Part shown: piece by piece, positions 4,786-43,719 of the stretch | Layout of the letters: each line of letters opens with the position of its first letter | Position numbering within the stretch: position 1 is the first letter of the stretch | Virus record (IMG/VR): IMGVR_UViG_3300003860_000007 | Location: 1 to 64,000 of that record | Length of the DNA stretch: 64,000 nucleotides | Source: a virus | Strand: one strand, 5' to 3' | Notes under the pieces: model-generated | What the model was told of the DNA's origin: nothing | The model's input: the letters and a program-made list of their open reading frames with translations, nothing else | Databases searched by the model: none | Translations under genes and position numbers: made by a program

Positions 4786-5361
4786 ATGATTAAAGAAGAA
4801 AAACATCATTATGTATATTTAACTACTAATCTTATCAATGGTAAACAATATATTGGTGATAGAACATGTAAATGTAATCCTGAAAATGATAAGTATTTAG
4901 GAAGTGGCAGACCATATTTTCAAAATGCTATTAAAGAATATGGAAAAAATAATTTTAGCAAACAAATACTTGAATGTTTTAATACAAGAGAAGAAGCTTT
5001 TAATGCCCAAGAAAAATATATTATACAATATAATACGCTTATTCCTAATGGATATAATATAAGTCCTAAAGGTGGCCATAATGTTAAAGAATGTTGGAGC
5101 AAAGAATCTAAAGAAAAATGCAGTAACACTAAAAAAGGAAAAATTGGATATTGGAAAAATAAAAAATTATCAGAAGAACATATTAAACATTTAAAAGAAA
5201 ATCATAAAGGAATGTTAGGAAAATATCATTCAGATGATTCTAAATTACAACTTAGTAATTCAATGAAAATCAAAAATAACGGAAAAGAAACAGAAGAACA
5301 TAAACAAAAAATAAAATTAAGTATGCAAAATTATTGGGCAAAAAAGAAATTAGTGCATTAA
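4786..5361 (+). CDS. GIY-YIG homing endonuclease with C-terminal NUMOD-like DNA-binding repeats
   Basis: HYVYLTTNLINGKQYIGD is a GIY...YIG motif. The C-terminal K/H-rich repeats GKIGYWKNKKLSEEHIKHLKENHKG match the Seg/I-TevI architecture. Confidence 0.85.
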   Translation: MIKEEKHHYVYLTTNLINGKQYIGDRTCKCNPENDKYLGSGRPYFQNAIKEYGKNNFSKQILECFNTREEAFNAQEKYIIQYNTLIPNGYNISPKGGHNVKECWSKESKEKCSNTKKGKIGYWKNKKLSEEHIKHLKENHKGMLGKYHSDDSKLQLSNSMKIKNNGKETEEHKQKIKLSMQNYWAKKKLVH

Positions 5362-5579: not shown

Positions 5580-6755
5580 TTATTTTATATTAAGTTGATA
5601 TTTACAAAATTCTATCATTTTTTCATCTCCTGTATGTTTTCCTTCTGAATCAGACAATTTAATACAAGGTACCCATTCATCGTCAGGATCAGGTTTTGCT
5701 GCAATTAGTTTAATAACCATATTAAGTGGGTTAACTCCAACATCATTAGATAAATTTGTGCCTATTCCCATTGCGCATTTAATTTCTTTATTACATGATT
5801 TTGTTAATTCAATTGCAAGATCAGGATTAAGATTATCTGAAAAAATTATAGTTTTATCATTGGGGTCAATTCCCATACTTTGATAATGTTTAATAACTTT
5901 TTCTGCAAAATGAAATGGATTTCCACTATCATGTCTTACACCATCAAAAAGCTTTGAGAATTTTTTTCCAAATGATTTAAAGAATGATTCTGTTGTAAAT
6001 GTATCTGTAAGAGCAATTCCAAGATCACCTTGATAAACATTTGACCAGTTTTCAAGAGCTAAAAAATTTGCTTGTTTAAATCCATATTTTGCAGCATGAA
6101 ACATAAACCATTCATGTGCATGAGTTCCTATTGGAGTAAGATTAAACATATGAGCAAAGTGTACATTAGAAGTTCCATTAAAATTATCTCTCATACTAAA
6201 TGCTAAATCTTCTACAACTTCTTTTTGATTTTCATATGAATATCTTCTACGAGTTCCAAATTCAGAAATCTTAACTCCATGATTATTAAATAATGCAGCT
6301 TTTTTTAGATTATTTTGTTCTCTTTCTACTCTTGAATTTATTTTTTCTCCCGTCATTTTAAAATACAATTCAGATATAAGAGCAAGAAGTGGAACTTCCC
6401 AAAGAATTGTACGATACCAGTAGCCTTCTACAGTTACTTGAAGTTCACTTCCATTTTGTATAACTCCAACTTCTGAAGGATTATATCTATATCCTGCCAA
6501 AAAATCAAAATACGCAGGATCGATATATTTACATTTAGTTTCAAAGAAGTGTTTTTCTGCAGTCAAAAGTTTAAGAGAAGACATATGAGAAATTTGTAAT
6601 CTTAGTTCTTCTGCAAATCCTTCTGGAAAATTTACTTTTGAACGAACTATTAATGCATATTTAACTTTTGCTCTTGGAAAAAGTTTTAACACTGCATTCA
6701 TCATACTAAATTTATAAAGATCGTTATCGAGTATTGATGTAATTATAGGTTCCAT
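5580..6755 (-). CDS. pncB: Nicotinate phosphoribosyltransferase (PncB-like); probable start at internal MEPIITS, ORF track gives 5580..6794
   Basis: Motifs DNDLYKFSM, EFGTRRR, GTSNVHFA, PIGTHAHEW, GVRHDSGNP and GIGTNL follow PncB/NAPRTase order. The start is trimmed to the Met adjacent to the upstream stop. Confidence 0.75.
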   Translation of the reverse strand: MEPIITSILDNDLYKFSMMNAVLKLFPRAKVKYALIVRSKVNFPEGFAEELRLQISHMSSLKLLTAEKHFFETKCKYIDPAYFDFLAGYRYNPSEVGVIQNGSELQVTVEGYWYRTILWEVPLLALISELYFKMTGEKINSRVEREQNNLKKAALFNNHGVKISEFGTRRRYSYENQKEVVEDLAFSMRDNFNGTSNVHFAHMFNLTPIGTHAHEWFMFHAAKYGFKQANFLALENWSNVYQGDLGIALTDTFTTESFFKSFGKKFSKLFDGVRHDSGNPFHFAEKVIKHYQSMGIDPNDKTIIFSDNLNPDLAIELTKSCNKEIKCAMGIGTNLSNDVGVNPLNMVIKLIAAKPDPDDEWVPCIKLSDSEGKHTGDEKMIEFCKYQLNIK

Positions 6756-6756
6756 T

Positions 6757-7224
6757 TTATATTTTTTTAGCATGAAAATAAGTGACTCCATCAATTTCTG
6801 TCATATCAAGAATTTTAAATTGATATGCACTAAATAATGCTGTTACAATTCTTGGTGTTAACGATCTATCAATTTTATTATCTAATAAATTAAATATAAC
6901 ATCTATAAGCTTTCCATATAATATATGAGTTTTTAAACTCAACATAGGTTTACTTGCTATAAATTTTCCATATACATAAGTATTCTTTTTTAAAAGATTA
7001 TTAAAATCTTTAATAGTATCGTCTAAATATTTAATTTCATTTAATTTTTTAAGATGAACAAGCGTTTTAATTCCTTTTAGTTCATCTTTATCATAGAAAT
7101 AAAAATGTTTTCCCGAAAGAAATAAAACTTTTTCATCTTTAACTTTTTTATGTTTTTGCACATATGCATGCATAACATGATCATATGTTTCATCTTTATA
7201 TTGAATATCATTAAAACTTTTCAT
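6757..7224 (-). CDS. Hypothetical protein
   Basis: ORF track only. Confidence 0.35.
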   Translation of the reverse strand: MKSFNDIQYKDETYDHVMHAYVQKHKKVKDEKVLFLSGKHFYFYDKDELKGIKTLVHLKKLNEIKYLDDTIKDFNNLLKKNTYVYGKFIASKPMLSLKTHILYGKLIDVIFNLLDNKIDRSLTPRIVTALFSAYQFKILDMTEIDGVTYFHAKKI

Positions 7225-8574: not shown

Positions 8575-9225
8575 TTAAATATTTCCTATAAAAGAAAGTG
8601 TAAGAGAATCTACATAATAAACTTTAGCTTGTGTAAAAGCTTCTATAGTTTCTGACAAATCTGAATTTATTGATTTACACGCATCTTCAATAACATATGT
8701 ATTAAAACCTTCCATTGCTGCATCTATTGCAGTTTCTTTCACACAATAATCTAGAGCTAAACCACATACGTAAACTTCAACTACATTTCTTTCATTAAGA
8801 AAATCTTGAAGTTTTTTAGGAGCATCTGGATTTATTATTTTTGATCTATCAAATGCACTATAAACATGATTATTCCTTTCCATGCCTTTTTTAAAGATAT
8901 AAAAATCTTTTTTGCATTTTGATAAATTCAGATCTGGATGAAATGAAGCACCTAATGTATCTGCTACACAATGATCAGGCCAAAGAATATCTTTTTCTCC
9001 ATTTTCTCTTACGTAACTATCGTAAACAGAAGCTCCGGGATGTTGTGAGGCGAAAGCATCCATTTCTGGATCATGCCAATCTTGTGTAAATATAACTAAA
9101 TCAAATCTTTCAAGGAGATCATTAACTACGGGTACAATTTTGTCTCCATCTGGTACTGCTAGTGATCCTCCAGGGCAAAAATCTCTTTGCAAATCGATCA
9201 CTATTAATGCTTTTTTCTTTATCAT
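8575..9225 (-). CDS. pncA: Nicotinamidase / isochorismatase-family hydrolase (PncA-like)
   Basis: IVIDLQRDFCPGGSLAV and the later Cys-containing segment match the PncA/isochorismatase fold signature. Confidence 0.75.
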   Translation of the reverse strand: MIKKKALIVIDLQRDFCPGGSLAVPDGDKIVPVVNDLLERFDLVIFTQDWHDPEMDAFASQHPGASVYDSYVRENGEKDILWPDHCVADTLGASFHPDLNLSKCKKDFYIFKKGMERNNHVYSAFDRSKIINPDAPKKLQDFLNERNVVEVYVCGLALDYCVKETAIDAAMEGFNTYVIEDACKSINSDLSETIEAFTQAKVYYVDSLTLSFIGNI

Positions 9226-9381: not shown

Positions 9382-10317
9382 TCATAATTCTTCCTTTTTA
9401 TTTTTAACATATCTATTGTATATACTATTTTCATTTTCTATTATATCGTGTCTATATATATTGACAGGATTATTTCTTTTGAATTGAGATTTTAAATGTC
9501 GTTGAATGACAGAGTGTTGACGCATTTTATTAATTTCATCCATATATACTGCATTAACAGTTGGTGAATGTTTTTCAATAAAGTCTAAATATTCTTTAAG
9601 TATTCTATCAACTTCTTTATAACCATCTCTAGAATTTCCTGTCCAGTCTGGCATTATTTGTCCAAGATCTCCAAGATTTGTAACTCCAAGGCCATCAGTT
9701 GCAAGTGCAGTTATCGTATTTATTATTGTACTTCCTGCTTCATAATTTCCAGCATATTCATTCATAGTTAACCATTCTGCCATATCATATACTTCTGTTT
9801 TCCAAAGATTTTGTATCATACCATAATCACCTACATCACCATGAAGAGTCCAAAAACCAAGAAGAAATTCTGTATAATTATCAGTAGAAAGAACTATTCC
9901 ACGATGATATGAAGCTAAATCATACAAATAAATCATACGCAGTCTTGCTTTAAGATTTCCATTACGTATACGACTTGATGAACCTTCAGGATTAGGCGCA
10001 TGAAACAGCATATTAGATTCCATTTTGGAATACATAAAATTATATTCTTCTTCAACGCTATGCTCTAAGAATTTTGTACAAAATACTTTTCCTGTTAATT
10101 TGGCTCTTTCTAATTCTTCTGGTTGATTTGAACTTACTGGCAAACTTCTTCCTATAAGTGGAATATTTAATTCATCACAAACTGGTCTAGCAAGTGCTGC
10201 GCAAAGACAACTATCTATTCCACCTGAAATCCCTATAATAAGAGACTTTATATTATTGTTTGTAATATACAGACTTAATTCTTTTCGAATATTCGATACT
10301 GCTATTTGATAATTCAT
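9382..10317 (-). CDS. nadE: NH3-dependent NAD+ synthetase (NadE)
   Basis: PP-loop IGISGGIDSCL (SGGxDS); overall length and layout match NadE. Confidence 0.8.
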   Translation of the reverse strand: MNYQIAVSNIRKELSLYITNNNIKSLIIGISGGIDSCLCAALARPVCDELNIPLIGRSLPVSSNQPEELERAKLTGKVFCTKFLEHSVEEEYNFMYSKMESNMLFHAPNPEGSSSRIRNGNLKARLRMIYLYDLASYHRGIVLSTDNYTEFLLGFWTLHGDVGDYGMIQNLWKTEVYDMAEWLTMNEYAGNYEAGSTIINTITALATDGLGVTNLGDLGQIMPDWTGNSRDGYKEVDRILKEYLDFIEKHSPTVNAVYMDEINKMRQHSVIQRHLKSQFKRNNPVNIYRHDIIENENSIYNRYVKNKKEEL

Positions 10318-10586: not shown

Positions 10587-11090
10587 TTATAAATCATTTT
10601 CTTTGTGTTTACACCAAGTTAGATATTCATCTTGATCTCTTATCCATTGTAATAATTCTGGATCAGTAACTTGTTCATGTTCTATTTTAGACCATAATTC
10701 GTTATCTCTTTCATTTTTATCATATTGATTAACGAAATATATTTTCTTAATTCCCGCTGCTATTATATTTTTCAAACATTCACTGCAAGGTTCAAGTATA
10801 CAATAAAGTTCTGCTTCTTCAATAGCAATTCCATGTTTGGCTGCAAAATTAATAGCATTCATTTCAGCATGAACCTCATATTTTTTAGACCAATTATGAT
10901 GGGCTTCTCTATCAGTTAGAAAATTATAATTAGGAAAATGATCACAACAATTTTCAAATCCTTTAGGTGTCCCATTTATTCCCGTGGAAATAATTCTTCT
11001 ATCATGAACAATAAGAGCTCCCACTTGTCTTGAGACACATTTAGATTCTTGTCCAAGTAAATATGCTGTTTTAAGAAAGAAATGTTTCAT
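10587..11090 (-). CDS. dCMP / cytidine deaminase (T4 Cd-like)
   Basis: HAEMNAI...PCSECLKNI is the zinc-binding H-A-E ... PC-x-x-C deaminase signature. Confidence 0.8.
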   Translation of the reverse strand: MKHFFLKTAYLLGQESKCVSRQVGALIVHDRRIISTGINGTPKGFENCCDHFPNYNFLTDREAHHNWSKKYEVHAEMNAINFAAKHGIAIEEAELYCILEPCSECLKNIIAAGIKKIYFVNQYDKNERDNELWSKIEHEQVTDPELLQWIRDQDEYLTWCKHKENDL

Positions 11091-11656: not shown

Positions 11657-13360
11657 TTAGATTTCAATCTTGTTGATTTCATCTATGATTACCTGTGGGT
11701 TTATTTCAACCTGAGGAATCTTTTCGTAGATGTCTTGACCGTAGCCGTAAAGACGGAATACTCTGTTTCCACCCTTTATAGGAGCAGTTGCTGCATATCC
11801 GCATACGTTGATGATGTATACGTATGGTGTTCCGAACTTCTTGCAGTATCCTGCATAAGAATTTTCTACATTGCTGTATCCATCCTGTTCGTCAGAGATG
11901 ATAAGAATTCTATCGTACTGCTTGTTAGTTCTTTCAAACAACTTGAAGCAAGAACCGAAATCTGTACCGTGACCGCAACATCCGTTGTAGGACATGAACT
12001 TCTGCTTTAACGTATTGATTGAATCGATTGGGTTCCAACCTACAATCTGTTCAGCAGTAGAAGCGAAATGGTATACATCTCCACCAACACCCTTTGCAAA
12101 TGTTGCAGCTACAAGTGCAGCCTTGTCAGCTGGCTTCTTATTGATAGCCTTCTTAGGGTCACCATTAAGATAAATGCTGGAGTATCCACCTTTCATAGAA
12201 CCTGATGTATCGAATACAACTGCTGTTCTACCTTCTGGAAGCAAGTTCTGAAGGTTTGGAATTGACAATTCATATGCTGTTGAAAGTGCCTTTGCAACCT
12301 TAGCCAACTGTGTTCCGTTGAATTCAAGTGTCATCACTTCAAGAGCAATGTCAATCTGGTGTGGCCATACAAGAGACTTACGGATGAATTCCTTTTCAAC
12401 AAGTAAATCGCACGCCTTGTCAAGAAGAACAGTATCATTGGTCTTAAGAATGTTACGTACGTTACGAAGTAATGCAAGGTACCCAATCTTCTTAGTTTCA
12501 ATAAGTTCCTTGTAGTTTTCAGTCTTAGCTTCATTAAGTTCAACAGTTGCCTGTTCCTTAGTGATAGTTCCAGCCTTAACCTTTTCAGCTACAACCTTTC
12601 CTGCTTCAGTATTCTTATCTTCAACAGTGTTGAACTGCTTAAGAACGCCAAGAACAAGAGCCTTAAGAGTTGGAAGACCAACATTACCATTTTCAGGTGC
12701 ATCTAAAAGATATTCATCCTTTTCGAACTTAGTACCCTTAACAGCCTTCAAGTATTCAGCTTCTGATACAAATACTGTTCCATTTATAGGTGTTTCATGT
12801 GGGTGCACTAAGTTAACGATGTCAACAAGGCTTACACCACGTGACTTCATCTGGTACTTAGCTAACTGATATGCATCTGCATGTTCAATTGCATCCTTGA
12901 ATCCCTTCTTAATAGCGTTTGGAATTGGTGCTTCTACACCATTCTTAGCCTGGTAACATGCAAGAATTTCTGCCATGTCATCAAGACGATAAACGATACC
13001 TCCACGATTTTCCTTACGGTCTCTCTTAGAGAAGAATCTCTTAGCGATTTCAGAACCTGCAAGGTGAGGGATTAATTCTACTGCACCGTAATGAGTAACA
13101 GAACGCTGTCCAAATACTGTACGTGCATAGATAAGTGCCTTAGCTGCGAATAATGCATTCTTCTGCGCAACTCTATTGATAACTTCACGGAATCTCTTTT
13201 CACGTTCAGTTTCCTTTTCGTAATAAGTATTATCTAAACCAGTAGATAAAATACCAATTAATTCATGTTCTGGCTTCTGTGTTAAACCAGTTCCACCCTG
13301 TAAAGTTACAGTTTCCTTAACTTCTGGGTTGCTTACTCTCTTTTCATTGTACTTTGACAT
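11657..13360 (-). CDS. Ro60/Rsr-like TROVE-domain protein with C-terminal vWA/MIDAS domain
   Basis: N-terminal region (TGLDNTYY..., ALFAAKALIYARTVFGQRS) parallels the Ro60 TROVE region. C-terminal VVFDTSGSM is a DxSxS MIDAS motif. The gene is visibly more GC-rich than its neighbours and is preceded by AAAGGAGGT. Confidence 0.6.
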   Translation of the reverse strand: MSKYNEKRVSNPEVKETVTLQGGTGLTQKPEHELIGILSTGLDNTYYEKETEREKRFREVINRVAQKNALFAAKALIYARTVFGQRSVTHYGAVELIPHLAGSEIAKRFFSKRDRKENRGGIVYRLDDMAEILACYQAKNGVEAPIPNAIKKGFKDAIEHADAYQLAKYQMKSRGVSLVDIVNLVHPHETPINGTVFVSEAEYLKAVKGTKFEKDEYLLDAPENGNVGLPTLKALVLGVLKQFNTVEDKNTEAGKVVAEKVKAGTITKEQATVELNEAKTENYKELIETKKIGYLALLRNVRNILKTNDTVLLDKACDLLVEKEFIRKSLVWPHQIDIALEVMTLEFNGTQLAKVAKALSTAYELSIPNLQNLLPEGRTAVVFDTSGSMKGGYSSIYLNGDPKKAINKKPADKAALVAATFAKGVGGDVYHFASTAEQIVGWNPIDSINTLKQKFMSYNGCCGHGTDFGSCFKLFERTNKQYDRILIISDEQDGYSNVENSYAGYCKKFGTPYVYIINVCGYAATAPIKGGNRVFRLYGYGQDIYEKIPQVEINPQVIIDEINKIEI

Positions 13361-15646: not shown

Positions 15647-15672
15647 AAGAGGACTTTAAGTCCTCTTTTTTA
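15647..15672. terminator. Rho-independent terminator (AAAGAGGAC-TTTAA-GTCCTCTTT then T-run)
   Basis: Perfect hairpin followed by T-run after + gene 14743..15612. Confidence 0.6.
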
Positions 15673-15996
15673 TGAATATAATTCATCAATTTTATTTTGA
15701 ATATTAGATTTTGGACATAATCCTACTTGATGCCAAATATTACCGCCATCCTTAAAAAATATCAATGTGGGAATACTTCGTATACCAAATAATTTAGTAA
15801 CTTCATGACTTTCATCTACGTTACATTTAACAACTTCTATTTTTTGGTTTTCTTCTGAAAGTTCTTCCATAATTGGACCTAATACTCTACAAGGTCCACA
15901 CCATTCTGCCCAAAAATCAACTATTATAGATTTTCCCGAATCTATAAGAATTTCTTTATAATTTTTATCAGTTATTTCTCTCATATTATAATTCAT
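15670..15996 (-). CDS. Thioredoxin
   Basis: WAEWCGPCR active site; about 108 aa. Confidence 0.85.
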   Translation of the reverse strand: MNYNMREITDKNYKEILIDSGKSIIVDFWAEWCGPCRVLGPIMEELSEENQKIEVVKCNVDESHEVTKLFGIRSIPTLIFFKDGGNIWHQVGLCPKSNIQNKIDELYS

Positions 15997-16171
15997 TTAT
16001 TAAAATTTGTGCTGCTATTTCACAATCATATTCATTTTCATATACGTGTGTACTTGCTCCTTTAACTACTGTACCATCTAAAGATTTTACTACAAACTCA
16101 AAATCATTATAAATAGGATGACAATGTATCTCAATCATATACCCATTATATTCGTAGTTTTTATTTATCAT
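15986..16171 (-). CDS. Small hypothetical protein (paralog of 16168..16368)
   Basis: Shares an N-terminal YNGY.I.I pattern with the next ORF. Confidence 0.3.
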   Translation of the reverse strand: MINKNYEYNGYMIEIHCHPIYNDFEFVVKSLDGTVVKGASTHVYENEYDCEIAAQILINEL

Positions 16172-16381: not shown

Positions 16382-16458
16382 TGGTTGTCCCGGCAAGGCT
16401 CGAACTTGAAGTCTTCAGAATCAAAATCTGACGTGTTAACCGATTACACCACGGGACA
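16382..16458 (-). tRNA. tRNA-Gln (anticodon UUG), CCA encoded
   Basis: Acceptor TGTCCCG/CGGGACA, anticodon arm TCAGA-TTTTGAT-TCTGA, T-arm CAAG-TTCGAGC-CTTG, 3' ACCA. Confidence 0.65.
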
Positions 16459-17100
16459 ATTTATAAAATCTAATAATTTTTCTATTGTAAAATATTTCAA
16501 TTCATAATATGGTATTCTATATATTCTCCATCCTTTAGATCTTAAAAAATTATCTTTTTTCATATCATGTTCAACCCTTTTTAATCCGTTAGTAAAATGA
16601 GGTTCTCCATCATATTCAATAGCAATTTTTTGATCAACAAAAGCAAAATCTATAAAATAAGGATAAATTGGATATTCATTTATAATTGAATATTTTTCAT
16701 AAAAACTATTATCTTTAAGCATTTTATTTATTATGCTTTCTCCTTTACTCATCAATCTTTTATGTCTATTTGTAAAAGTTGAAATATTATTTTCATCAGA
16801 TAAATAGTCAAAACGTTTTTGTCTTAAAATTTCTTTAGATTGTTCGTTATGATGTTTATCCTTGAATGCGTTAGTTATGTTTCCTTCTTTATAATTTTGT
16901 TTTAATGTGTTTGATTGTTGTAAAATAGACGCATTATTATGTTTTGTTTTTCCTTTTGCCCAGTGTATTTTTTCACCAGTTTTCAATGTTTTTCCCGTAT
17001 CATGTGCTTTACCTTCTTCTGTATGAGTCCTCCAAATATGGCCTTTAATTCCATATTTATTATATTCTTTTTCGCAATAAGGACATTTCATACAATACAT
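16444..17100 (-). CDS. Zinc-finger + PD-(D/E)xK (DUF559/Vsr-like) nuclease-fold protein; putative homing endonuclease
   Basis: N-terminal CPYCEKEY...HIWRTH. C-terminal YFIDFAFVDQKIAIEYDGEPH...KDNFLRSKGWRIYRI is a D...E.D restriction-endonuclease-like core. Confidence 0.55.
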   Translation of the reverse strand: MYCMKCPYCEKEYNKYGIKGHIWRTHTEEGKAHDTGKTLKTGEKIHWAKGKTKHNNASILQQSNTLKQNYKEGNITNAFKDKHHNEQSKEILRQKRFDYLSDENNISTFTNRHKRLMSKGESIINKMLKDNSFYEKYSIINEYPIYPYFIDFAFVDQKIAIEYDGEPHFTNGLKRVEHDMKKDNFLRSKGWRIYRIPYYELKYFTIEKLLDFINCPVV

Positions 17101-25105: not shown

Positions 25106-25764
25106 TTTATATTAAATATTTTTTCATAATTTTGAATATCTGATAAAAATATCATTTCAATATTATTATAATTACTCAAAATATATCTCATTTTCTTTTT
25201 ATCTTCTTCTTCATATCTTCCTTTAACTTCAAAGAACTTTTTTAAATTTGGACACCAAAAATCTGGATAATATGTGTGAATTTCCCCGAATTCATTTGTC
25301 CAAGATAAACCATCAGAAAAAGGCTTTATCCAATCTTTATCTATAATATTTAAAATAACTGCGAAACGTTTTTCATAGGTTCCTTGTACTTTTATCTTTG
25401 TTCCATCAGGTTTTATAATTTCATACCATTTACATTTTCCGCCAGTTATCCATCCTTTATTATTTATAGATATTTTTCTTTTTGTTTCTAAATCTCTTGG
25501 ACCATTTTTTCTTCCTTTCAATTTAGAAGGTCTTCCTTTTTTAGTATCCCAAACTCTATTTTCAGAATGAATAGCCCAAATATGAAATTTTACGCCTCTA
25601 GGATTATCATATTCTTTTTCACATATTGGACATTTATGAAAACCATTAGGTTGTTTATAAATATTAACTTTATTTTGTCTATTACCACATTTTTCATAAT
25701 GTTTCTTAAAATTTGATAAACTTATTTCTTTATTACATTTATCACAAATTCTTTTATTTACCAT
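25099..25764 (-). CDS. Zinc-finger + PD-(D/E)xK-fold nuclease-like protein; paralog of the truncated gene at 1..647
   Basis: CDKCNKEIS...KKHYEKCG, CPICEKEY...HIWAIH, C-terminal YYPDFWCPNLKKFFEVKG; sits inside the tRNA cluster. Confidence 0.5.
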   Translation of the reverse strand: MVNKRICDKCNKEISLSNFKKHYEKCGNRQNKVNIYKQPNGFHKCPICEKEYDNPRGVKFHIWAIHSENRVWDTKKGRPSKLKGRKNGPRDLETKRKISINNKGWITGGKCKWYEIIKPDGTKIKVQGTYEKRFAVILNIIDKDWIKPFSDGLSWTNEFGEIHTYYPDFWCPNLKKFFEVKGRYEEEDKKKMRYILSNYNNIEMIFLSDIQNYEKIFNIKL

Positions 25765-25888
25765 ATTTTTATTTTATATATTCATATAGTAATTCTTTAA
25801 TTTACTACTTAATGTAACACTTGTTCATTACTACATTGCTGAGAAAGCCGAAAAGTGTGTAATTAGCTTTTAACTTTTCCCCCATTTG

Positions 25889-25971
25889 AGACCGAGAAGG
25901 GATTCGAACCCTTGTGAGCTTTCGCTAATGGTTTTGCAGACCATCCTTTTCAACCACTCAAGCACTCAGTC
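25889..25971 (-). tRNA. Type-II (Ser-like) tRNA with anticodon GCA (Cys codons)
   Basis: Acceptor GACTGAG/CTCGGTC, Ser-type D-arm CTT-GAGTGGTTGAA-AAG, anticodon arm ATGGT-CTGCAAA-ACCAT (perfect 5-bp stem), about 14-nt variable arm TAGCGAAAGCTCAC, T-arm AAGGG-TTCGAAT-CCCTT. Confidence 0.45.
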
Positions 25972-26003
25972 AAATTTTATTCCAATATTTCAAATAACTT
26001 ATA

Positions 26004-26045
26004 ATGCAAATATAATACTAATTTCTGAATTAAAAAAATATTTTT
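26004..26045 (-). promoter_or_regulatory. Copy of conserved promoter-like motif (upstream of tRNA 25889..25971)
   Basis: atgcaaatataatactaatttctgaattaaaaaaatattttt. Confidence 0.45.
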
Positions 26046-26158
26046 GCATTTATTTTCTATTTTTTTTACTTATCTTAAAAATTGTATACAAATATAAACA
26101 ATAATCTTGATATAAAAAAATAATTTAACACTTATTTTAAAGAACTATATAAACAAAG

Positions 26159-26183
26159 AACCCTCCGTATTTTGGAGGGTTCA
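26159..26183. terminator. Hairpin terminator-like (GAACCCTCC-GTATTTT-GGAGGGTTC)
   Basis: 9-bp perfect inverted repeat. Confidence 0.5.
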
Positions 26184-26413
26184 GAAAGGAGTATATAATA
26201 AATGATATTATTACCTACGCTTAACTATTCCCTCCGTTTTAACAAAATAACATAACGGTAGCTGCTCGCTAACTTGTGGGAGTTGTTGTGAAAAAGAAGA
26301 ATATGTAGGTTTCAATATCATCACTTAATATTTCTTAATTTTAATATATATCAATGTATATTTGTAAATTATATATACTGAATGCAAAAAGTTTTAAAAA
26401 AATGAAAAATAAT

Positions 26414-26635
26414 TTAATCATTAAAAATTTTAACCAAATATAATGCTTCTTGTCTTTGTAAAAGTTCTTCATTTAATCTATCATGCAGATCTTCTATATT
26501 TACTAAACCATTCTTTTTGGCTGCTTTAACGTAATTATTTATTAGAACCTTACAATTAGTTATCTGATCTTCATTTTGACAAGAATTTATAATTCCTAAT
26601 ATTTTTTTAACTGGTACAGAATTTTTATTTTTCAT
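26414..26635 (-). CDS. Hypothetical protein
   Basis: ORF track only. Confidence 0.3.
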   Translation of the reverse strand: MKNKNSVPVKKILGIINSCQNEDQITNCKVLINNYVKAAKKNGLVNIEDLHDRLNEELLQRQEALYLVKIFND

Positions 26636-26652
26636 GGCATTATATAATTTTT

Positions 26653-27051
26653 TTATTTCATTGTTATCTTATACGTGTGACTATCATCTAAAGAATACGG
26701 AGTTCCTCTTCTAGTATAAACACGAACTTCATAAATTCTATCAGACATATTTACACTACTAAAGTCTAATTTTATTTTAACTACTTCTATAGAAATATTT
26801 TTAGCCCATTTATATGTGTTAAAATTAAAAAAATCACCCGTTATTATTTTTCCTAATAATTTTTGTTTAAATAATTTGCGTAATTGAGCACGTCTTTTTT
26901 TAATTATAGTACTAATGTCTTTTTGTACATTTGTATAATATATTTCATTTTGATCTCTTAAAATAAAATTCTCTTTGTATCCTATACCCATATCTTTTAC
27001 TGGATCGGAATCTTCAACAAATTTTTCATTTATATGTTCTTTAACTATCAT
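26653..27051 (-). CDS. Member of conserved-N-terminal-module family (tandem paralog 1 of 3)
   Basis: MIVKEHINEKFVEDSDPVKDMGIG...KLLGKIITGDFFNF... Confidence 0.6.
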   Translation of the reverse strand: MIVKEHINEKFVEDSDPVKDMGIGYKENFILRDQNEIYYTNVQKDISTIIKKRRAQLRKLFKQKLLGKIITGDFFNFNTYKWAKNISIEVVKIKLDFSSVNMSDRIYEVRVYTRRGTPYSLDDSHTYKITMK

Positions 27052-28153: not shown

Positions 28154-28930
28154 TTATTTTATTTTGAATAATTTTCTAAATAATCCTCGTGATGCTTTAT
28201 GAGCATCTGCTTTTGCTGATAGATTTTCAGGATTTGAATCAGCATCAATAGCAGTCCAAACTTCCCACTGAAATCCCCATTCAGCAAAAGGAAAATAAGT
28301 ATATCCTTGATCGCCCCATTCTGCTGTCCATGAATTTCTAATAATAAATTTATCTTTAAGATATCCAGCAACACAAACTGCATGTCCACCTAACATTTCT
28401 TGACCAGTAAAATCTGGTTTCCAAAAATCCATTTTATCTGAATTAAATACTGGAAATGCAATATAACAAGGTCCATTAGCAAATAAAGCTTTTTTAAGTG
28501 AATCTACTGTATTGATTTGAGCATATCCTTGAATTTTATATTTAGCTGCTTTAAATTTTAATTCTGGCGTAATAGCTTTAAATTGTCCATAAGGATAATC
28601 TTTTTCTGTAACAATTCCAATCTTATATAAAATATCCATTGTATCTCTTGGTGTCATTCCAGAAGATTCTTGATTTGATCTTAAATTATATACAAATTGA
28701 GGTGATAAATATTCTCTAAGTTCAACATCTGTTAATTCTTCCCATTCTTTAAGTGCTGCTGCAGTTTGTGCAGAGCATGTACCTTGCTGACCTTGATCTC
28801 TTACTGGTCTCATTTGAGGTCTCAAATCCCATATTTCTGGAAGAACTACTCTGTTAGGATATATTGATTCTAACATAAAGTCCCTTTTATCTACGGGAGA
28901 TTTTTCAAGATTAAATAAATACTTTTGCAT
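28154..28930 (-). CDS. Papain-like (C1 family) cysteine peptidase
   Basis: Catalytic Cys context DQGQQGTCSAQTAAAL; His/Asn region LGGHAVCVAGY...IIRNSWTAEWGDQGY. Confidence 0.7.
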   Translation of the reverse strand: MQKYLFNLEKSPVDKRDFMLESIYPNRVVLPEIWDLRPQMRPVRDQGQQGTCSAQTAAALKEWEELTDVELREYLSPQFVYNLRSNQESSGMTPRDTMDILYKIGIVTEKDYPYGQFKAITPELKFKAAKYKIQGYAQINTVDSLKKALFANGPCYIAFPVFNSDKMDFWKPDFTGQEMLGGHAVCVAGYLKDKFIIRNSWTAEWGDQGYTYFPFAEWGFQWEVWTAIDADSNPENLSAKADAHKASRGLFRKLFKIK

Positions 28931-29691: not shown

Positions 29692-30396
29692 ATGAACTAC
29701 CAAAAAATTTATGAATCTATAATTCAAAAAGCTAAATCTGAAAATAGAGTAAAACACAAAGAAGTATATTATGAAAATCATCATATTATGCCTAAATGTT
29801 TAGGTGGAAATAACGATATATCAAATTTAATTTTATTAACGGCAAAAGAACATTTTATATGTCATAAATTATTAACATATATTTATCCAACGAATAGAAA
29901 AATAATATGTGCTTTACATATGATGACATATTCTTGTAATGAAAATTCTATTAAATCTTCAAGAGATTATAAATTTGTAAAAGAGCTTTTATCAGATAAT
30001 AGTAAAGGAAAAAAACATCCTATGTTTGGAAAACATCATTCAGAAGATGCAATAAATAAAATGAAAAAACCACATAAAAAATATTCGAAAGATTATATGT
30101 TAAGCTTAAAAGAAATTCGTAAAGGAGAAAAAAATCCTATGTATGGCAAAAAACAAACTAAAGAATCAAATGAAAAAAATTCTCAATCTCATATAGGAAA
30201 AAAACATACAACAGAAAGTAAGAAAAAAATGTCTATAACTCGTATATCAAAACATTTTAAACATACAGAACAAACAAAAAAGAAACAAGGAGAATGGCAA
30301 AAAGGAAAAACATATATAGAACTATATGGAGAAGAAAAGGCATCACAAATGAAAGAAAAACAAAGACTTGCTAAATTACAAAAAAATAGGAAGTAA
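29692..30396 (+). CDS. HNH homing endonuclease with C-terminal K/H-rich NUMOD-like repeats
   Basis: YENHHIMPKCLGGNNDISNLILLTAKEHFICH is the HNH core; its close paralog is at 37143..37844. Confidence 0.85.
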   Translation: MNYQKIYESIIQKAKSENRVKHKEVYYENHHIMPKCLGGNNDISNLILLTAKEHFICHKLLTYIYPTNRKIICALHMMTYSCNENSIKSSRDYKFVKELLSDNSKGKKHPMFGKHHSEDAINKMKKPHKKYSKDYMLSLKEIRKGEKNPMYGKKQTKESNEKNSQSHIGKKHTTESKKKMSITRISKHFKHTEQTKKKQGEWQKGKTYIELYGEEKASQMKEKQRLAKLQKNRK

Positions 30397-30425: not shown

Positions 30426-31985
30426 TTATTTTTTATCTACTTCTGTTTTTGGTTTAAGCATAGCTATTGCGTCTTCTGGTTTTACTCCTATAAAATTTAA
30501 TAAAGATGTCATATCGAAACCTGTTCCTTTTAAACCTTCAAACATTTTAGTAAGTACTTCTACTGGTATAGTTCCAAATTTTGATGTAGCAGAACCTCCT
30601 TCTTTTCCAGATCCAAAATCTACTATTTTAATATCTTTAACATTTCCGAGATGTGATGTACTTGCTGCCATAACTCCTGCAAATTCTTTTATAACATTTG
30701 GTCCAAGAGTTTGAAGAGCTGACAAAACTTCTAAAAAACGGCCAGTTTGATCAAGTTTTGCATAAGCTTCAGCTTTTTCCAATGTACCTTTAGCTTCTGC
30801 AGAAAGTTTAGCATAAATTGCATTACCTTCAGCCTGTCCTTTTTTCGTAATAATAGCAGCTTCACCCTCAGCTTCTGCATTCTTTTTCAACACAATTGCC
30901 TTAGCTTCACCTTCTGCTTTAATACGCTGTGCTTCTCTTTGTCCTTCAGCTTCAAGAATATAAGCCTGTTTTGCCGCATCTGCATTAATGATTTTCTGTT
31001 GTTTTTGAGCTTCAGCTGGAACAATCATTTCAGCTTCATATTGTTTCTGAGTTTTAAGAGCTCTTTGTTCTTGAACAGCAATATTAGCCTTTTCTGCTGC
31101 AGCTTCTGTAGCTGCTCTTGCTTCTACTACATTTTTCATTGCCTGTGCTTGAGATAAAGGACCAGCCTGATTTGCAATTTCATTCTGTCTATCAGTTTCA
31201 GCCTTCATTTCAGCCTTCCTTACATTCATACTTCTATTAGCTTCTGCAATCTTCATTTCATTCTGGTTTGCAGCTTCAACTGCTAGTCTATTAGCATCAG
31301 TTGTTTTGATTGTAGAATCTCTCAAAGCTTCTGCAGTACCAATTTCTGCGTCTCTCTTGATTTCAGCAGTTCTTTTCTTACCAAGGTTAATAATATAACC
31401 ATCTTTATCAGTTACATTCTGAATGTTAAGAGAATCTACAGTAATACCAAGTTTCTTAAAATCTTCTGATGCATCTTCAAGAACAGCCTGATTAAGTTTT
31501 TGCTTGTCACCGATTAATTCTTCAATAGTCATTTTACCTACTACAGAACGAAGGTGACCTTCAAGATTTTGAAAAATAATTTTATCAACTTCATCATCAT
31601 CTTTTCCAAGGAATCTTTCAACTGCGATTTCCAATAGTGCTTTATCACTTGAGAATTTAGTATTAGCTACGCCTTCTACGGTTGTCATAACTCCGTTTTT
31701 ATTAGGTGCATTATCCACCTTTATGTTAATTACTCGGTTAGACAAATCCATCATCTGTACTTCTTCCAAAAAAGGAAGCTTAAATACACCGCCACCTGTG
31801 ATAAGACGATATCCTTTCGTGCCACCGCCCGCGGCTTTATTTTTTCTACCATAAAGAACAGCAGCTTTATTAGGAGCGATTCGAATATAGTTTTTTACTA
31901 GTATGGCTATTAATCCTACTAAAACTATAATGGAAACAAGCGTGATAGCTGCAACAACTAACATTGATTTTGCTTCTGGGTTCAT
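30426..31985 (-). CDS. SPFH / band-7 flotillin-like membrane protein
   Basis: N-terminal TM segment, SPFH-like core, and a long Ala/Glu/Lys-rich coiled-coil with EA repeats, as in FloT/YuaG. Confidence 0.75.
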   Translation of the reverse strand: MNPEAKSMLVVAAITLVSIIVLVGLIAILVKNYIRIAPNKAAVLYGRKNKAAGGGTKGYRLITGGGVFKLPFLEEVQMMDLSNRVINIKVDNAPNKNGVMTTVEGVANTKFSSDKALLEIAVERFLGKDDDEVDKIIFQNLEGHLRSVVGKMTIEELIGDKQKLNQAVLEDASEDFKKLGITVDSLNIQNVTDKDGYIINLGKKRTAEIKRDAEIGTAEALRDSTIKTTDANRLAVEAANQNEMKIAEANRSMNVRKAEMKAETDRQNEIANQAGPLSQAQAMKNVVEARAATEAAAEKANIAVQEQRALKTQKQYEAEMIVPAEAQKQQKIINADAAKQAYILEAEGQREAQRIKAEGEAKAIVLKKNAEAEGEAAIITKKGQAEGNAIYAKLSAEAKGTLEKAEAYAKLDQTGRFLEVLSALQTLGPNVIKEFAGVMAASTSHLGNVKDIKIVDFGSGKEGGSATSKFGTIPVEVLTKMFEGLKGTGFDMTSLLNFIGVKPEDAIAMLKPKTEVDKK

Positions 31986-32017: not shown

Positions 32018-32542
32018 TTAGATTTTTTCAACGATAAGTAAACCTTCTTGTGCTTCAATAACTTTAACAGTTTGGCTTTTTCTTAAAGGCTTGTCACTTT
32101 TATCTTTACATGTATAATATAAATTATCTACATAAATTTCACCAAGACCTTGATCGCCTGAAGCAATTGTTATAGTTCCTGATTTTCCTACAAGATTTTT
32201 TGCATCTTTCACTTCTCCTGCCTGTTGACTATAAAAGGCTTTAATTATTAGAAAAGCAAAAAACATCATTACAAATCCTATTAAAAATCCCAAGAATAGT
32301 TGTCCGCCTATACTCCAATTAAGAAGAGTTTTAGCACATATACCAGCTACTCCAAATCCTGCTAGAAAAGCAGAAATAGTACGAATAGAAAATAGACCAG
32401 GAGAATCTGTGTCTGTATCTGCATGTCCATCAAAATCGTGATGGAAATCAAAATGTGTATCAAAATCGTGGTCTATGCCACCGAAGATTGCTAGAGAAAA
32501 TACTACCAATCCTACAATAAGAAATACTAAATAAAGTGTCAT
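32018..32542 (-). CDS. NfeD-like membrane protein with C-terminal OB-fold (SPFH partner)
   Basis: Multi-TM N-terminus plus a soluble beta-rich C-terminus; immediately upstream of the SPFH gene in the canonical nfeD-spfh order. Confidence 0.55.
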   Translation of the reverse strand: MTLYLVFLIVGLVVFSLAIFGGIDHDFDTHFDFHHDFDGHADTDTDSPGLFSIRTISAFLAGFGVAGICAKTLLNWSIGGQLFLGFLIGFVMMFFAFLIIKAFYSQQAGEVKDAKNLVGKSGTITIASGDQGLGEIYVDNLYYTCKDKSDKPLRKSQTVKVIEAQEGLLIVEKI

Positions 32543-37142: not shown

Positions 37143-37844
37143 TTATTTTTTAAATTTACAATTGTTAAAATGATATCTTGTCATATTTGGACCCTTTCCA
37201 ATTAATCCACAATGCGGACATATTTTTTTAATATGTTCATGGTGTTTTCCTATTTGTGCTGCACTCATTTTTTGTTTTGATTTTTCTGTATGTTTTAATC
37301 CTATACGCGAATTAGACATATTATCCTTTATTTGTTTTGATTTTTTTATTCCATAAAATTCTTCATACGTTTTTCCTTTGCGTTTTTTATTATATTTTTT
37401 TAACCCCCAAGTATGATAATTTTTACCAAATGCTCCATTGTTAGATCCCTGTAGTTTTTTTCCATTTTTAAACATTCCGTTATGTTTACCAGAACTTTTA
37501 ATACTTAATTTTTCTTTAGTTTCATAAGACAATGATTTATTTGATCTTAATGATCTTGCTAATTCATAATCTCTAGCAGAAATATATTTTTTATTTTTAT
37601 TTACACAAGTCATCATATGAAATGCATATATAATTTTGGTATTTTCGGAATGAATATAACACAATAATTTATGACATACATAATGTTCTCTTGCTGTTAA
37701 TAAAATTTTATTTTCTTTATCATCAGTGCCTCCTATACATTTAGGAATTATATGATGATTTTCATAATATTTTCCATTTTCTTTTAATCTATTTTCTAAT
37801 TTTGCTTTGTTAATTATAGACTCATAAATTTTTTGATAATTCAT
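37143..37844 (-). CDS. HNH homing endonuclease (paralog of 29692..30396)
   Basis: MNYQKIYESIINKAK...YENHHIIPKCIGGTDDKENKILLTAREHYVCH; C-terminal C-x2-C. Confidence 0.85.
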   Translation of the reverse strand: MNYQKIYESIINKAKLENRLKENGKYYENHHIIPKCIGGTDDKENKILLTAREHYVCHKLLCYIHSENTKIIYAFHMMTCVNKNKKYISARDYELARSLRSNKSLSYETKEKLSIKSSGKHNGMFKNGKKLQGSNNGAFGKNYHTWGLKKYNKKRKGKTYEEFYGIKKSKQIKDNMSNSRIGLKHTEKSKQKMSAAQIGKHHEHIKKICPHCGLIGKGPNMTRYHFNNCKFKK

Positions 37845-38182: not shown

Positions 38183-38653
38183 TCATGTATTGAGTTTTTT
38201 AATTATTTCTTCACGTTTTCCTGTTTGTTTTATTCCTTCATAAAATCTTGTGCATATTACAAATCTTTTTTCTGGAAGCCAAAGAGATAAATCTAAATCA
38301 TCTACTGCAGTCCAATGAAGAGGTTTTATTCTATTCACATGCTCAAGTATTTCTTCTGATCTATATTTTTCCAGTAATTGCATTGTTCTTCCTTTAAGAG
38401 ATACTGTAACATCTATGGGAGCTTTTTTAACTCCCATCATTTCGACAAATATTTCTTGTAAAGAAGTCAACGAATAATGATCTTTCCAATCACTTGATAG
38501 TATAATATCTGTATCAGTCTCATCTATTATTTCATTCAATACTCTTACTGCTTTTTTATTTACTCTATGAACATATCCCCACTTTGTAAGTTTTGGATGT
38601 ATTTCACTTCCCAATGACAATACACCATCAATATCTAAGTATAGAAATTTCAT
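38183..38653 (-). CDS. HAD-superfamily phosphatase-like protein
   Basis: N-terminal LYLDIDGVL is the DxDGV/T motif I. Confidence 0.5.
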   Translation of the reverse strand: MKFLYLDIDGVLSLGSEIHPKLTKWGYVHRVNKKAVRVLNEIIDETDTDIILSSDWKDHYSLTSLQEIFVEMMGVKKAPIDVTVSLKGRTMQLLEKYRSEEILEHVNRIKPLHWTAVDDLDLSLWLPEKRFVICTRFYEGIKQTGKREEIIKKLNT

Positions 38654-40296: not shown

Positions 40297-40893
40297 TTAC
40301 TGTTTTTTATATAAAATATTAAATTTTTCTAATGCCATTTTAATTCTCTTATCATGTTCAAACGCCCATTCATATTTATCAATATCTTCAACCGGAATCC
40401 AATGCACCATATCTACTTCTTCACTGATAAATTGTTCAATATCTCTTGGAAGTAATTTTTGTGCAAGCGTAAAATCAAAAGCTAAACAATAATTTAATGC
40501 TATATTTTGACGGCATTCTTTAGATTCTGTTTCAACATAAAAAGGTTCTTTATTATTTGTAAATGCAAGATATTTTGAATAATCTTCAATAAGAAATGAG
40601 GTTTCTTCATATAGCTCTCTTCGTACTGCATCCCAGCCATTTTCATTCCAGTCTATGTATCCTCCTGGAGCTACCCATTTTCCAGGTTCGTCTCTTATTA
40701 TTTCAGATCTTTTTTCTCCAAGAACATGCACGCCATCACTAAATTCACCAAATACTATCGCTACTACTGCAACTGAACGAGATTCCCAAACTTCTCTTTT
40801 CTTAAAGAATTTTGAAAGTATCCAATAAATCCATTTTGGAAAAATAAAAACAAAATGGCAAGAGTTTAATTTATTAGTAAATATCGGTATCAT
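40297..40893 (-). CDS. Nudix hydrolase
   Basis: Nudix box GGYIDWNENGWDAVRRELYEETS (Gx5Ex7REUxEExGU). Confidence 0.7.
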   Translation of the reverse strand: MIPIFTNKLNSCHFVFIFPKWIYWILSKFFKKREVWESRSVAVVAIVFGEFSDGVHVLGEKRSEIIRDEPGKWVAPGGYIDWNENGWDAVRRELYEETSFLIEDYSKYLAFTNNKEPFYVETESKECRQNIALNYCLAFDFTLAQKLLPRDIEQFISEEVDMVHWIPVEDIDKYEWAFEHDKRIKMALEKFNILYKKQ

Positions 40894-42915: not shown

Positions 42916-43719
42916 ATGAAAGATTTTAGAAAAACAGAAAATGGATTTTTTATTTGTGAAGAATGTGGGATAATAACTAAAAGAAAATCTGGGTTAAGTA
43001 AACATATTAATATTCATCATATTAATGTAAAAACATATTTTGATAAATGGATAAAAGATATCGATGATGATAAATGTAAAATATGTAAAAAAGAAACTAA
43101 ATATCTTAACATAAAAACTGGATATAAAAATACTTGTTGTAAAAAATGCGAAAATTTATATAAACATAATAGAACAAAAGAAGAGTGTATTAAAAAATAT
43201 GGAGTAGAACACCCTTTGCAAGATATATCTATAAATGAAAAACAAAAACAATCAATGATAAATGTTTGGGGTGTAAGTAATCCTGGCCAATCAAATGAAT
43301 TAAAATTAAAAAAGAAAAAAACTTTTGTATTAAGATATAAGTGTGAAAATCCTTTACAAATTAAAACAATATTTTATAAAACTCAAATATCTGGATATAA
43401 TTGTAAATTATTCAAAAATACTACTATTTATTATAGAGGCTCATATGAATTAGATTTTTTAGAAAAATATTATGACATATACCCCGATATTGAAAACGGT
43501 CCATCTATTAAATATAAAATCGGTGTAAAAAATAAAATATATTATCCGGACTTTTTTATTCCGTCATTAAATCTTATAATTGAATGTAAAAATTCGTATT
43601 TAGCTAAAAAAGATAAAAAACTTATAAAGATTAAAGAAAATGCATGTATTGAAAACGGTTTTAATTATTGTATTATAATAAATAAACAATATGAAAATTT
43701 AAGATGGCTCAAGAATTAA
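42916..43719 (+). CDS. Zinc-finger protein with C-terminal PD-(D/E)xK-like motif; putative homing endonuclease-like
   Basis: CEECGIITKRKSGLSKHINIHH is C2H2-like, plus further Cys pairs. C-terminal YYPDFFIPSLNLIIECKNSY. Confidence 0.4.
   Translation: MKDFRKTENGFFICEECGIITKRKSGLSKHINIHHINVKTYFDKWIKDIDDDKCKICKKETKYLNIKTGYKNTCCKKCENLYKHNRTKEECIKKYGVEHPLQDISINEKQKQSMINVWGVSNPGQSNELKLKKKKTFVLRYKCENPLQIKTIFYKTQISGYNCKLFKNTTIYYRGSYELDFLEKYYDIYPDIENGPSIKYKIGVKNKIYYPDFFIPSLNLIIECKNSYLAKKDKKLIKIKENACIENGFNYCIIINKQYENLRWLKN

Follow-up and report, generated by a model that had tools for sequence, protein, structure and literature searches.

Long variable arms in bacterial transfer RNAs (tRNAs) are, by the textbook account, restricted to the tRNAs for serine, leucine, tyrosine and selenocysteine. 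Among cysteine tRNAs, a long arm has been described in the selC* tRNA-Cys of anaerobic bacteria, which combine it with U73 and a GCA or UCA anticodon (PMC5389517). In vitro, the cysteinyl-tRNA synthetase (CysRS) of D. tiedjei was functional when assayed for cysteinylation with the selC* tRNA-Cys of the same species, and selC* tRNA-Cys(UCA) decoded opal as cysteine in E. coli with an engineered CysRS variant (PMC5389517). Since selC* tRNA-Cys is cysteinylated, a long arm is no bar to CysRS. We analyzed a 64,000-nucleotide stretch of viral DNA (positions 1 to 64,000 of IMG/VR record IMGVR_UViG_3300003860_000007, hereafter the window), which carries at 25889–25971 on the minus strand a tRNA gene with the same combination of long variable arm, U73 and GCA. 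We consider it probable that this gene encodes a functional tRNA-Cys of class II shape that is charged by the host CysRS, and selC* tRNA-Cys would be the best precedent for such charging. The two nonetheless differ: selC* tRNAs mimic the selenocysteine tRNA (tRNA-Sec) and belong to anaerobic bacteria with sel genes, often lying beside selB* or cysS*, whereas the window tRNA is phage-borne, folds as an ordinary 7/5 cloverleaf whose D stem is 3 bp long, and is accompanied by no sel genes among the 60 window open reading frames (ORFs) scanned. selC* tRNA-Cys is the nearest known relative in kind of the window tRNA, which is not itself a member of that group.

Two further kinds of class II tRNA carry unexpected anticodons. 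Allo-tRNAs share with the window tRNA a class II body bearing the anticodon of a class I amino acid, but they keep serine identity (G73 or U73, with an 8/4 or 9/3 fold), whereas in the phage family described below the identity set matches the anticodon. Nematode nev-tRNAs are class II tRNAs with ‘wrong’ anticodons that mis-insert leucine and keep leucine identity. Our literature search, whose coverage was incomplete so that an earlier description is possible, returned no 7/5 long-arm tRNA-Cys and no such phage family, and a 2020 review of non-canonical tRNAs has no entry for a 7/5 long-arm tRNA-Cys.

With 28.9% G+C, the window is AT-rich; its 16 tRNA genes all lie on the minus strand. ARAGORN placed a tRNA-Cys at 25888–25971 (minus strand) with the anticodon GCA at position 35 of the gene, and Rfam RF00005 matched 25889–25971 (minus strand) end to end (57.2 bits, E = 1e-9). 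Together with the family profile, these calls delimit a complete class II-shaped tRNA-Cys(GCA) gene of 83 nt, counted from position 1 to the discriminator, which reads 5′ to 3′ GACUGAG UG CUU GAGUGGUUGAA AAG G AUGGU CUGCAAA ACCAU UAGCGAAAGCUCAC AAGGG UUCGAAU CCCUU CUCGGUC U. The 7-bp acceptor stem, drawn by ARAGORN, pairs GACUGAG (25965–25971) with CUCGGUC (25890–25896) and includes one G·U; pair 1:72 is G:C and pair 2:71 is A:U. U8 and G9 lead into a D arm (25946–25962, ARAGORN) with a 3-bp stem (C10-G25, U11-A24, U12-A23), G13·A22 left unpaired, and an 11-nt loop, GAGUGGUUGAA, containing G15, G18 and G19; position 26 is G. The anticodon stem AUGGU/ACCAU closes the loop CUGCAAA (25933–25939), in which a direct read and ARAGORN agree on G34 (25937), C35 (25936) and A36 (25935). 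The 14-nt variable region UAGCGAAAGCUCAC (25914–25927; ARAGORN and RNAfold), parsed as U-AGC-GAAA-GCU-CAC, consists of one unpaired base, a 3-bp AGC/GCU stem, a GAAA tetraloop and three unpaired bases, CAC, ending in C48, and RNAfold returned.(((....)))... for it. A T arm AAGGG-UUCGAAU-CCCUU and the discriminator U73 (25889; direct read and ARAGORN) complete the molecule, and no CCA end is encoded in the gene. A sequence-only reading of this locus had described a class II-shaped tRNA with the cysteine anticodon GCA, a 3-bp D stem, a GAGTGGTTGAA D loop, the arm AUGGU-CUGCAAA-ACCAU and a 14-nt variable region, and each of these is present; it had also allowed that software might find another anticodon or score the locus as a pseudogene, and neither occurred. 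It had left out U73, the A:U pair at 2:71 and the lack of an encoded CCA.

We next compared the identity elements of the window tRNA with those of cysteine, serine and tyrosine tRNAs. The anticodon loop of the window tRNA has A36-A37-A38, the setting in which i6A37 usually occurs in tRNAs reading UNN codons. U73 and the GCA anticodon are the major CysRS determinants, and U73 alone gives minihelices cysteine identity (PMC9976931). The window tRNA carries the CysRS set of U73, G34-C35-A36, a 15:48 Levitt pair formed by G15, and a D stem of 3 bp next to a 13·22 mismatch; all but the 48 partner, together with A37 in its A36-A37-A38 context, are shared with canonical bacterial tRNA-Cys. The 15:48 pair is G:C here compared to G15:G48 in E. 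coli tRNA-Cys, a feature that most bacteria lack (PMC9976931). Canonical tRNA-Cys differs in its shorter D loop, to which the window tRNA adds two bases, and in its 4-nt class I variable loop, in place of which the window tRNA has 14 nt with a hairpin. This short loop is a structural habit of tRNA-Cys and no known CysRS determinant. By its sequence, the window tRNA is a tRNA-Cys save for the length of its variable region.

The long arm raises the alternative that the sequence-only reading had put forward, namely a missense tRNA that seryl-tRNA synthetase (SerRS) charges via the arm and that inserts serine at UGU and UGC. Such insertion might occur always or in competition with cysteine (dual identity). 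SerRS ignores the anticodon and depends mainly on the long arm, and in bacteria tRNA-Ser has G73 along with conserved G1:C72 and G2:C71 pairs, whereas C2:G71 counters SerRS (PMC9976931). With bacterial and phage tRNA-Ser, the window tRNA shares its class II shape, a GAGUGGUUGAA-type D loop, G9, and its top profile score outside tRNA-Cys (28.8 bits); G1:C72 is also present. The remaining serine features, namely G73, G2:C71, a 4–8 bp variable stem followed by one unpaired 3′ base, and serine anticodons, are absent from it, as U73 and A2:U71 stand in their places. Using reference serine, leucine and tyrosine tRNAs taken from the same phage contigs as the long-arm genes, we found G2:C71 in 83/88 phage tRNA-Ser versus 18/52 long-arm cysteine members, and G73 in phage tRNA-Ser once 19 ARAGORN register shifts had been corrected. 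In these 19 genes (loci L009, L010, L013, L029 and others), ARAGORN pairs an extra 5′ U to G73 and sets the register off by one, so that a false U73 is reported, a trap for automated discriminator statistics.

Arm geometry separated the isotypes as well. Phage serine variable stems span 4–8 bp (at least 4 bp in 80/83), with one unpaired 3′ base in 57/83; leucine stems are mostly 3–4 bp with two unpaired 3′ bases (60/77), and tyrosine stems mostly 3 bp with three (21/31). Long-arm cysteine tRNAs have a 3–4 bp stem and a 4-nt loop, followed by three unpaired 3′ bases in 27/43 and by four in 9 more. With 3 bp, a 4-nt loop and three unpaired 3′ bases, the arm of the window tRNA is Tyr-like rather than Ser-like in geometry and lies outside the phage serine range. 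Bacterial-type tRNA-Tyr shares this 3-bp stem, a 3–4 nt loop and three unpaired 3′ bases, and its anticodon is one base away (GUA versus GCA). However, tyrosine identity needs A73 and U35 (PMC9976931), in place of which the window tRNA has U73 and C35, and overall similarity to tRNA-Tyr is low (19.6 bits). In its native form, the window tRNA scored 56 bits against the long-arm cysteine profile built from 73 phage genes, 34.6 against short phage cysteine, 28.8 against serine, 19.6 against tyrosine and 11.2 against leucine. Signals of ancestry drawn from the D arm, the variable arm and the profiles therefore conflict, with Ser-like sequence, Tyr-like arm geometry and a cysteine identity set.

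We then searched for relatives of the gene. A megablast of window positions 24000–27000 against GenBank phages gave no match, indicating that the GenBank phage collection holds no close sequenced relative. Sensitive blastn of the 83-nt gene against the same phages recovered long tRNA(GCA) genes from two phages that differ greatly: the Xanthomonas jumbo phage XacN1, whose 89-nt tRNA-Cys has U73 and a variable-arm sequence, AGCGAAAGCUCA, identical to that of the window, and the Prevotella megaphage Lak-A1, whose tRNA-Cys(GCA) is 81 nt long with U73. The 81-nt tRNA-Cys is common to Lak-A1, Lak-A2 and Lak-C1. A strict pattern derived from the tRNAs of the window and of Lak matched only two IMG/VR contigs, which called for looser patterns. 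One scan of IMG/VR combined the D loop and anticodon loop, with G13 and A22 but not C48 in the pattern; the other combined the anticodon loop with a T loop spaced for a long arm and left the D loop unconstrained. The discriminator position was in neither pattern.

Together, IMG/VR, XacN1 and Lak yielded at least 73 distinct long-arm tRNA(GCA) genes, whose variable regions span 10–20 nt, and among these listed matches the discriminator was U73 in 70 and A73 in 3. U73 was found in 50/53 aligned members and, among the matches listed, in 21/21 further members from the scan with an unconstrained D loop. We define the family by GCA, U73 and G15:C48 on a 7/5 cloverleaf whose variable region spans 10 nt or more and usually consists of a 3–4 bp hairpin plus about three unpaired bases; the window tRNA has all of these features and aligns without conflict with the 53-member alignment. 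Running the D-loop/anticodon pattern over 185,579 species genomes (one per bacterial or archaeal species) gave at least 120 loci, mostly not tRNAs, and among these listed loci 7 were tRNA(GCA), 2 of them with a long arm. Both of the latter look phage-derived, one being identical to a viral contig and the other lying with a short partner on a small contig of a metagenome-assembled genome. The matches listed suggest that the long-arm tRNA(GCA) family is mostly phage-borne. The sequence-only reading had called such a tRNA atypical for a phage set, which holds against textbook tRNAs but not among phages, where the design is common.

Short and long forms also occur together. Nine IMG/VR loci (L036, L045, L056, L064, L261, L267, L278, L320 and L337) carry a 71–75 nt tRNA-Cys alongside one of 85–89 nt, spaced by 5–12 nt in five loci and by about 90 nt to 2 kb in four, and the small metagenome contig (L131, 6937–7109) has a similar short/long pair 16 nt apart. 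In addition, a large group of phage tRNA-Cys of 76–79 nt (for example at L010, L012 and L018) has a class II-type D loop, GAGUGGUCGAA, with U73 and a 6-nt variable loop, AUCACC; these look like long-arm tRNA-Cys minus the hairpin, or like precursors that never gained it.

To assess the fold, we scored a 7/3/5/5 cloverleaf plus variable stem over an alignment of 53 distinct members including the window tRNA. Standard pairs occupied 95.6% of cells and double-sided changes occurred in 22/23 pairs, with a covariation score of 0.879 compared to 0.228 for shuffled partners and at most 0.172 for partners slid by 1–3 columns. The seven acceptor and five T-stem pairs were formed in 98–100% of cells, which fixes the arrangement as 7/5; all seven acceptor pairs and four of the five T-stem pairs covaried, 53:61 being an invariant G:C, and compensatory changes were found at all three D-stem pairs. 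G15:C48 was present in 53/53 members, with C48 outside the search patterns. We conclude that the long-arm tRNA(GCA) fold is under selection.

These data bear on two further explanations. The first is that the window gene is a decaying tRNA-Ser(GCU) or tRNA-Tyr(GUA) pseudogene with a point mutation in the anticodon. Either change (GCU to GCA or GUA to GCA) takes one base, and the Ser-like body and Tyr-like arm geometry would fit such a descent; however, the cloverleaf is perfect, the Rfam score is high, and more than 70 divergent phage genes retain GCA, U73 and the long arm alongside compensatory changes. We therefore regard a decaying pseudogene as highly improbable, and the comparative data rule it out as a one-off accident, while a decayed serine or tyrosine tRNA may be the distant origin of the family. 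The second, which builds on a Sec-like tRNA raised in the sequence-only reading, is a tRNA-Sec-like or selC*-type molecule that reads cysteine codons and delivers selenocysteine, or works with a SelB-like factor. ARAGORN draws a possible sixth anticodon-stem pair, G26·U44, as such a tRNA would have, but although this pair can form in the window tRNA, 26:44 is not kept across the family. The 7/5 fold with its covarying T stem is not the 8/5, 9/4, 8/4 or 9/3 arrangement of tRNA-Sec, selC* tRNAs and allo-tRNAs, the 3-bp D stem with its 11-nt loop is not the long (6-bp) D stem with a tetraloop that accompanies a 6-bp anticodon stem, and U73 stands in place of G73. An Rfam scan at gathering threshold returned RF00005 alone at the site and no tRNA-Sec match, and no selA, selB, selD or aminoacyl-tRNA synthetase gene was found among the 60 window ORFs scanned against Pfam, the window being 64 kb of a contig of at least 200 kb. 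The 7/5 fold with a 3-bp D stem tells against the Sec-like proposal, to which we assign a negligible probability.

We next asked how position 73 behaves on other isotypes, because the same phage contigs carry long variable regions on many of them. The discriminators of these long-arm tRNAs were U73 for threonine (10/11), G73 for asparagine (5/6), tryptophan (3/3) and aspartate (4/4), and A73 for valine (10/10), isoleucine (8/8) and proline (5/5). Long-arm lysine tRNAs were split between A73 (6/10) and U73 (4/10), as are short lysine tRNAs (28 and 18). Long-arm copies thus keep the discriminator typical of the short tRNAs of their own isotype. XacN1 provides the same comparison within one phage: its long-arm tRNA-Lys(CUU), Gly(UCC), Thr(UGU) and Asn(GUU) (564–652, 9054–9139, 12570–12660 and 15980–16068 within XacN1 30000–70000) and its tRNA-Cys(GCA) carry the discriminators A, U, A, G and U, respectively, each described as usual for its isotype. 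The tRNA-Lys(CUU) and tRNA-Cys of XacN1 have an identical variable hairpin, AGCGAAAGCUCAUC, and both contain the AGCGAAAGCUCA of the window tRNA. Serine tRNAs with mutated anticodons would be expected to show G73 throughout; since these genes do not, they are better described as cognate isoacceptors with an extra hairpin. The discriminator follows the anticodon, not the arm. This tracking, and the U73 found in 70/73 relatives among the matches listed, argue against the missense tRNA, as does XacN1, in which the long-arm gene is the sole tRNA-Cys. The tRNA set of XacN1 has been reported to cover all 20 amino acids, and the XacN1 paper makes no comment on the long-arm tRNA-Cys.

Two side observations concern the same kind of tRNA. 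The Brevundimonas phage Bajun (L002, 294–381), also recovered by the sensitive blastn, has an 88-nt long-arm tRNA-Trp(CCA) with G73 that is annotated as a plain tRNA-Trp, and its body is 82% identical to the window tRNA over 65 nt. Within the window itself, an 81-nt tRNA-Pro(UGG) at 24269–24349 (minus strand; Rfam, 51.3 bits) has A73 and a variable loop of 9 nt that is unstructured. It is the second case in this phage of an enlarged variable region on a tRNA that is normally class I.

Cysteine codons make up 1.37% of the codons in 63 window ORFs (177 TGT and 36 TGC). The motif CxxC occurs 14 times in these ORFs compared to 3.8 ± 1.9 in shuffled proteins, a count reached in 0/1000 shuffles, and SxxS shows no comparable excess over shuffled proteins in the window ORFs. 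Three enzymes place these codons at catalytic or metal-binding cysteines. A thioredoxin (15670–15996) has a WCGPC active site that aligns with solved thioredoxins, both cysteines being TGT; a dCMP deaminase (10587–11090) has HAE...PCxxC and a second zinc site that align with T4 Cd (PDB 1VQ2), with codons TGC and TGT; and a papain-family protease (28154–28930), matched by Pfam Peptidase_C1, has Cys52 (TGC) in QGQQGTCSAQ, which we read as the putative catalytic site. These enzymes need cysteine at TGT and TGC, so a serine-delivering tRNA would damage them. The serine charging proposed by the sequence-only reading thus fared poorly against U73 in place of G73, A2:U71 in place of G2:C71, the 3-bp arm with three unpaired bases, the prevalence of U73 among relatives and the phage genes’ need for true cysteine, and we judge a missense tRNA quite improbable; the evidence instead favors that reading’s fallback of an unusual cysteine tRNA.

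With the gene, its fold, its conservation and covariation, the tracking of discriminator by anticodon and the need for true cysteine at UGY established, we infer charging by CysRS and use of the tRNA on the ribosome. CysRS is a class I synthetase, and such enzymes leave the variable region facing solvent, so the arm is expected to be tolerated. The closest counterparts of the window 5′-3′ exonuclease are Lak megaphage enzymes (32% identity across 98% of the window protein), and a 221-aa protein neighboring the tRNA is also found on contigs of 0.2–1 Mb; together with the 81-nt tRNA-Cys of Lak, these point to a distant Lak megaphage relative as the source of the window. We propose that the host CysRS would charge the long-arm tRNA with cysteine via U73 and GCA, and that the charged tRNA would decode UGC, and UGU by G:U wobble, as cysteine, topping up the host tRNA-Cys pool during infection by this AT-rich phage. 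In such a scheme the long arm would not act as a serine identity signal, since its geometry and the acceptor end lack what SerRS needs, and CysRS would tolerate it. The arm may be a relic of a class II ancestor, an inserted hairpin or an adaptation.

Several observations weigh against this reading. With the anticodon and discriminator masked, the window tRNA scored 40.5 bits against long-arm cysteine, 22.9 against serine, 17.3 against short cysteine, 11.0 against leucine and 9.6 against tyrosine, so the best profile for the masked body outside the family is phage tRNA-Ser. The D arm and body are Ser-like in sequence, which speaks for the missense reading. Mukai et al. regard long-arm allo-tRNAs as compatible with SerRS whether they carry G73 or U73, and such allo-tRNAs insert serine at non-serine codons in E. 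coli (PMC5389517). Minor serylation of the window tRNA may thus occur, to judge from such features. The invariance of the D loop and anticodon loop across the family is partly built in by the search patterns, and the presence of normal and long-arm tRNA-Cys side by side at nine loci hints at incomplete redundancy between them.

This last arrangement is also relevant to a variant of the cysteine reading in which the tRNA is charged with cysteine but its hairpin is adaptive, escaping a host tRNA-targeting nuclease or toxin or being recognized by a phage factor for processing, modification or repair. The same design in very different phages, the nine loci that pair normal and long-arm genes, and the AGCGAAAGCUCAUC hairpin borne by both tRNA-Cys and tRNA-Lys(CUU) of XacN1 would fit this idea, as would the TROVE/Ro60-like protein and the ‘Swiss Army Knife’ RNA repair HAD domain encoded in the window. 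Phage tRNAs are also known to counter defenses that cleave tRNA (PMC10264068, PMC11555353). On the other hand, our analysis identified no tRNA-Cys-specific nuclease or arm-binding factor, and the family's variable regions form a continuum of 4 to 20 nt in which a stem may be present or missing, in keeping with neutral gain and loss. Some defenses, moreover, hit class II tRNAs or the variable loop, as reported for Septu on tRNA-Tyr (PMC13096335), making the arm a possible liability. A paper on bacterial Schlafen, consulted for targeting of class II tRNAs, had no bearing on this point. An adaptive hairpin on a Cys-charged tRNA is in our view unlikely. A broader form of the idea, which we offer as a speculation with a small chance of being right, is that the hairpin on phage tRNA-Cys, and on some threonine, lysine, asparagine, tryptophan, glycine and valine tRNAs, is a selected add-on that separates phage from host tRNAs, for escape from defense or for handling by phage RNA repair or modification, or else that it confers a regulated dual cysteine/serine identity.

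Other features of the window surround the tRNA gene. About 190 nt upstream lies a terminator-like hairpin (26158–26182, minus strand) of 9 bp followed by UUUGUUUAU, found in a consensus scan that returned 2 terminator-like sites compared to 0.2 expected. It probably ends the transcript of the upstream gene, which would make the tRNA the likely start of a new transcription unit; upstream of the tRNA, a scan for sigma-70 promoters gave no more hits than chance (9 versus 8.8 expected), and we name no promoter. TAG has been proposed to serve as a sense codon in Lak megaphages. The window carries an amber-suppressor tRNA with anticodon CUA (18769–18842, minus strand; ARAGORN label ‘Pyl’, Rfam 59.8 bits, C1:G72, A73), which suggests that TAG is read as sense somewhere in the phage, and within the window no clear trace of TAG recoding emerged from stop-to-stop ORF statistics. 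The TROVE-domain (Ro60-like) protein and the HAD-domain protein of ‘Swiss Army Knife’ RNA-repair type (11657–13360 and 38183–38653, both minus strand), taken with the tRNA array, are suggestive of a module for RNA quality control or repair; no Y RNA was found in the window at the Rfam gathering threshold.

Homing-endonuclease-like genes (GIY-YIG/NUMOD3, DUF559/Vsr-like, HNH and DUF7487) are interspersed among the tRNA genes, at 4786–5361 (+), 16444–17100 (−), 23406–24209 (−), 29692–30396 (+), 37143–37844 (−) and 42916–43719 (+), and the ORF at 16444–17100 overlaps the 5′ end of a tRNA-Gln (16382–16458) by 15 nt. An NAD+ salvage set (5580–6794, 8575–9225, 9382–10317 and 40297–40893, all minus strand) comprises a nicotinate phosphoribosyltransferase, an isochorismatase-family protein that is possibly a nicotinamidase, an NAD synthase and a NUDIX hydrolase, and may counter NAD-depleting defenses. 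An SPFH/Band 7 (flotillin-like) protein (30426–31985, minus strand) adjoins an NfeD-like protein (32018–32542, minus strand), and a Band 7 protein is likewise encoded within the tRNA region of XacN1 (1116–2027 within XacN1 30000–70000). On the plus strand, a 1295-aa collagen-repeat protein with a C-terminal endosialidase-chaperone (S74) domain (51533–55420) is probably a tail fiber and adjoins a 2290-aa protein with PKD and DUF285 repeats (56241–63113).

Our results indicate that cysteine tRNAs with a class II scaffold and cysteine identity marks are routine among phages, and that other isotypes are built in this way less often. For annotation, isotype-specific models may flag such genes as a serine/cysteine conflict or as recoding, and this should not be read as a change of the code. 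For the study of tRNA identity, the family is a natural experiment in which identity goes with the anticodon and discriminator rather than with the arm. If the tRNA were partly serylated, which we judge unlikely, it would be a source of programmed mistranslation, and if the hairpin were selected or conferred a dual identity, it would add a so far undescribed level to the conflict between phage and host over tRNA. For phage biology, it is a testable question why large phages retain a long-arm tRNA-Cys, in some cases beside a normal one.

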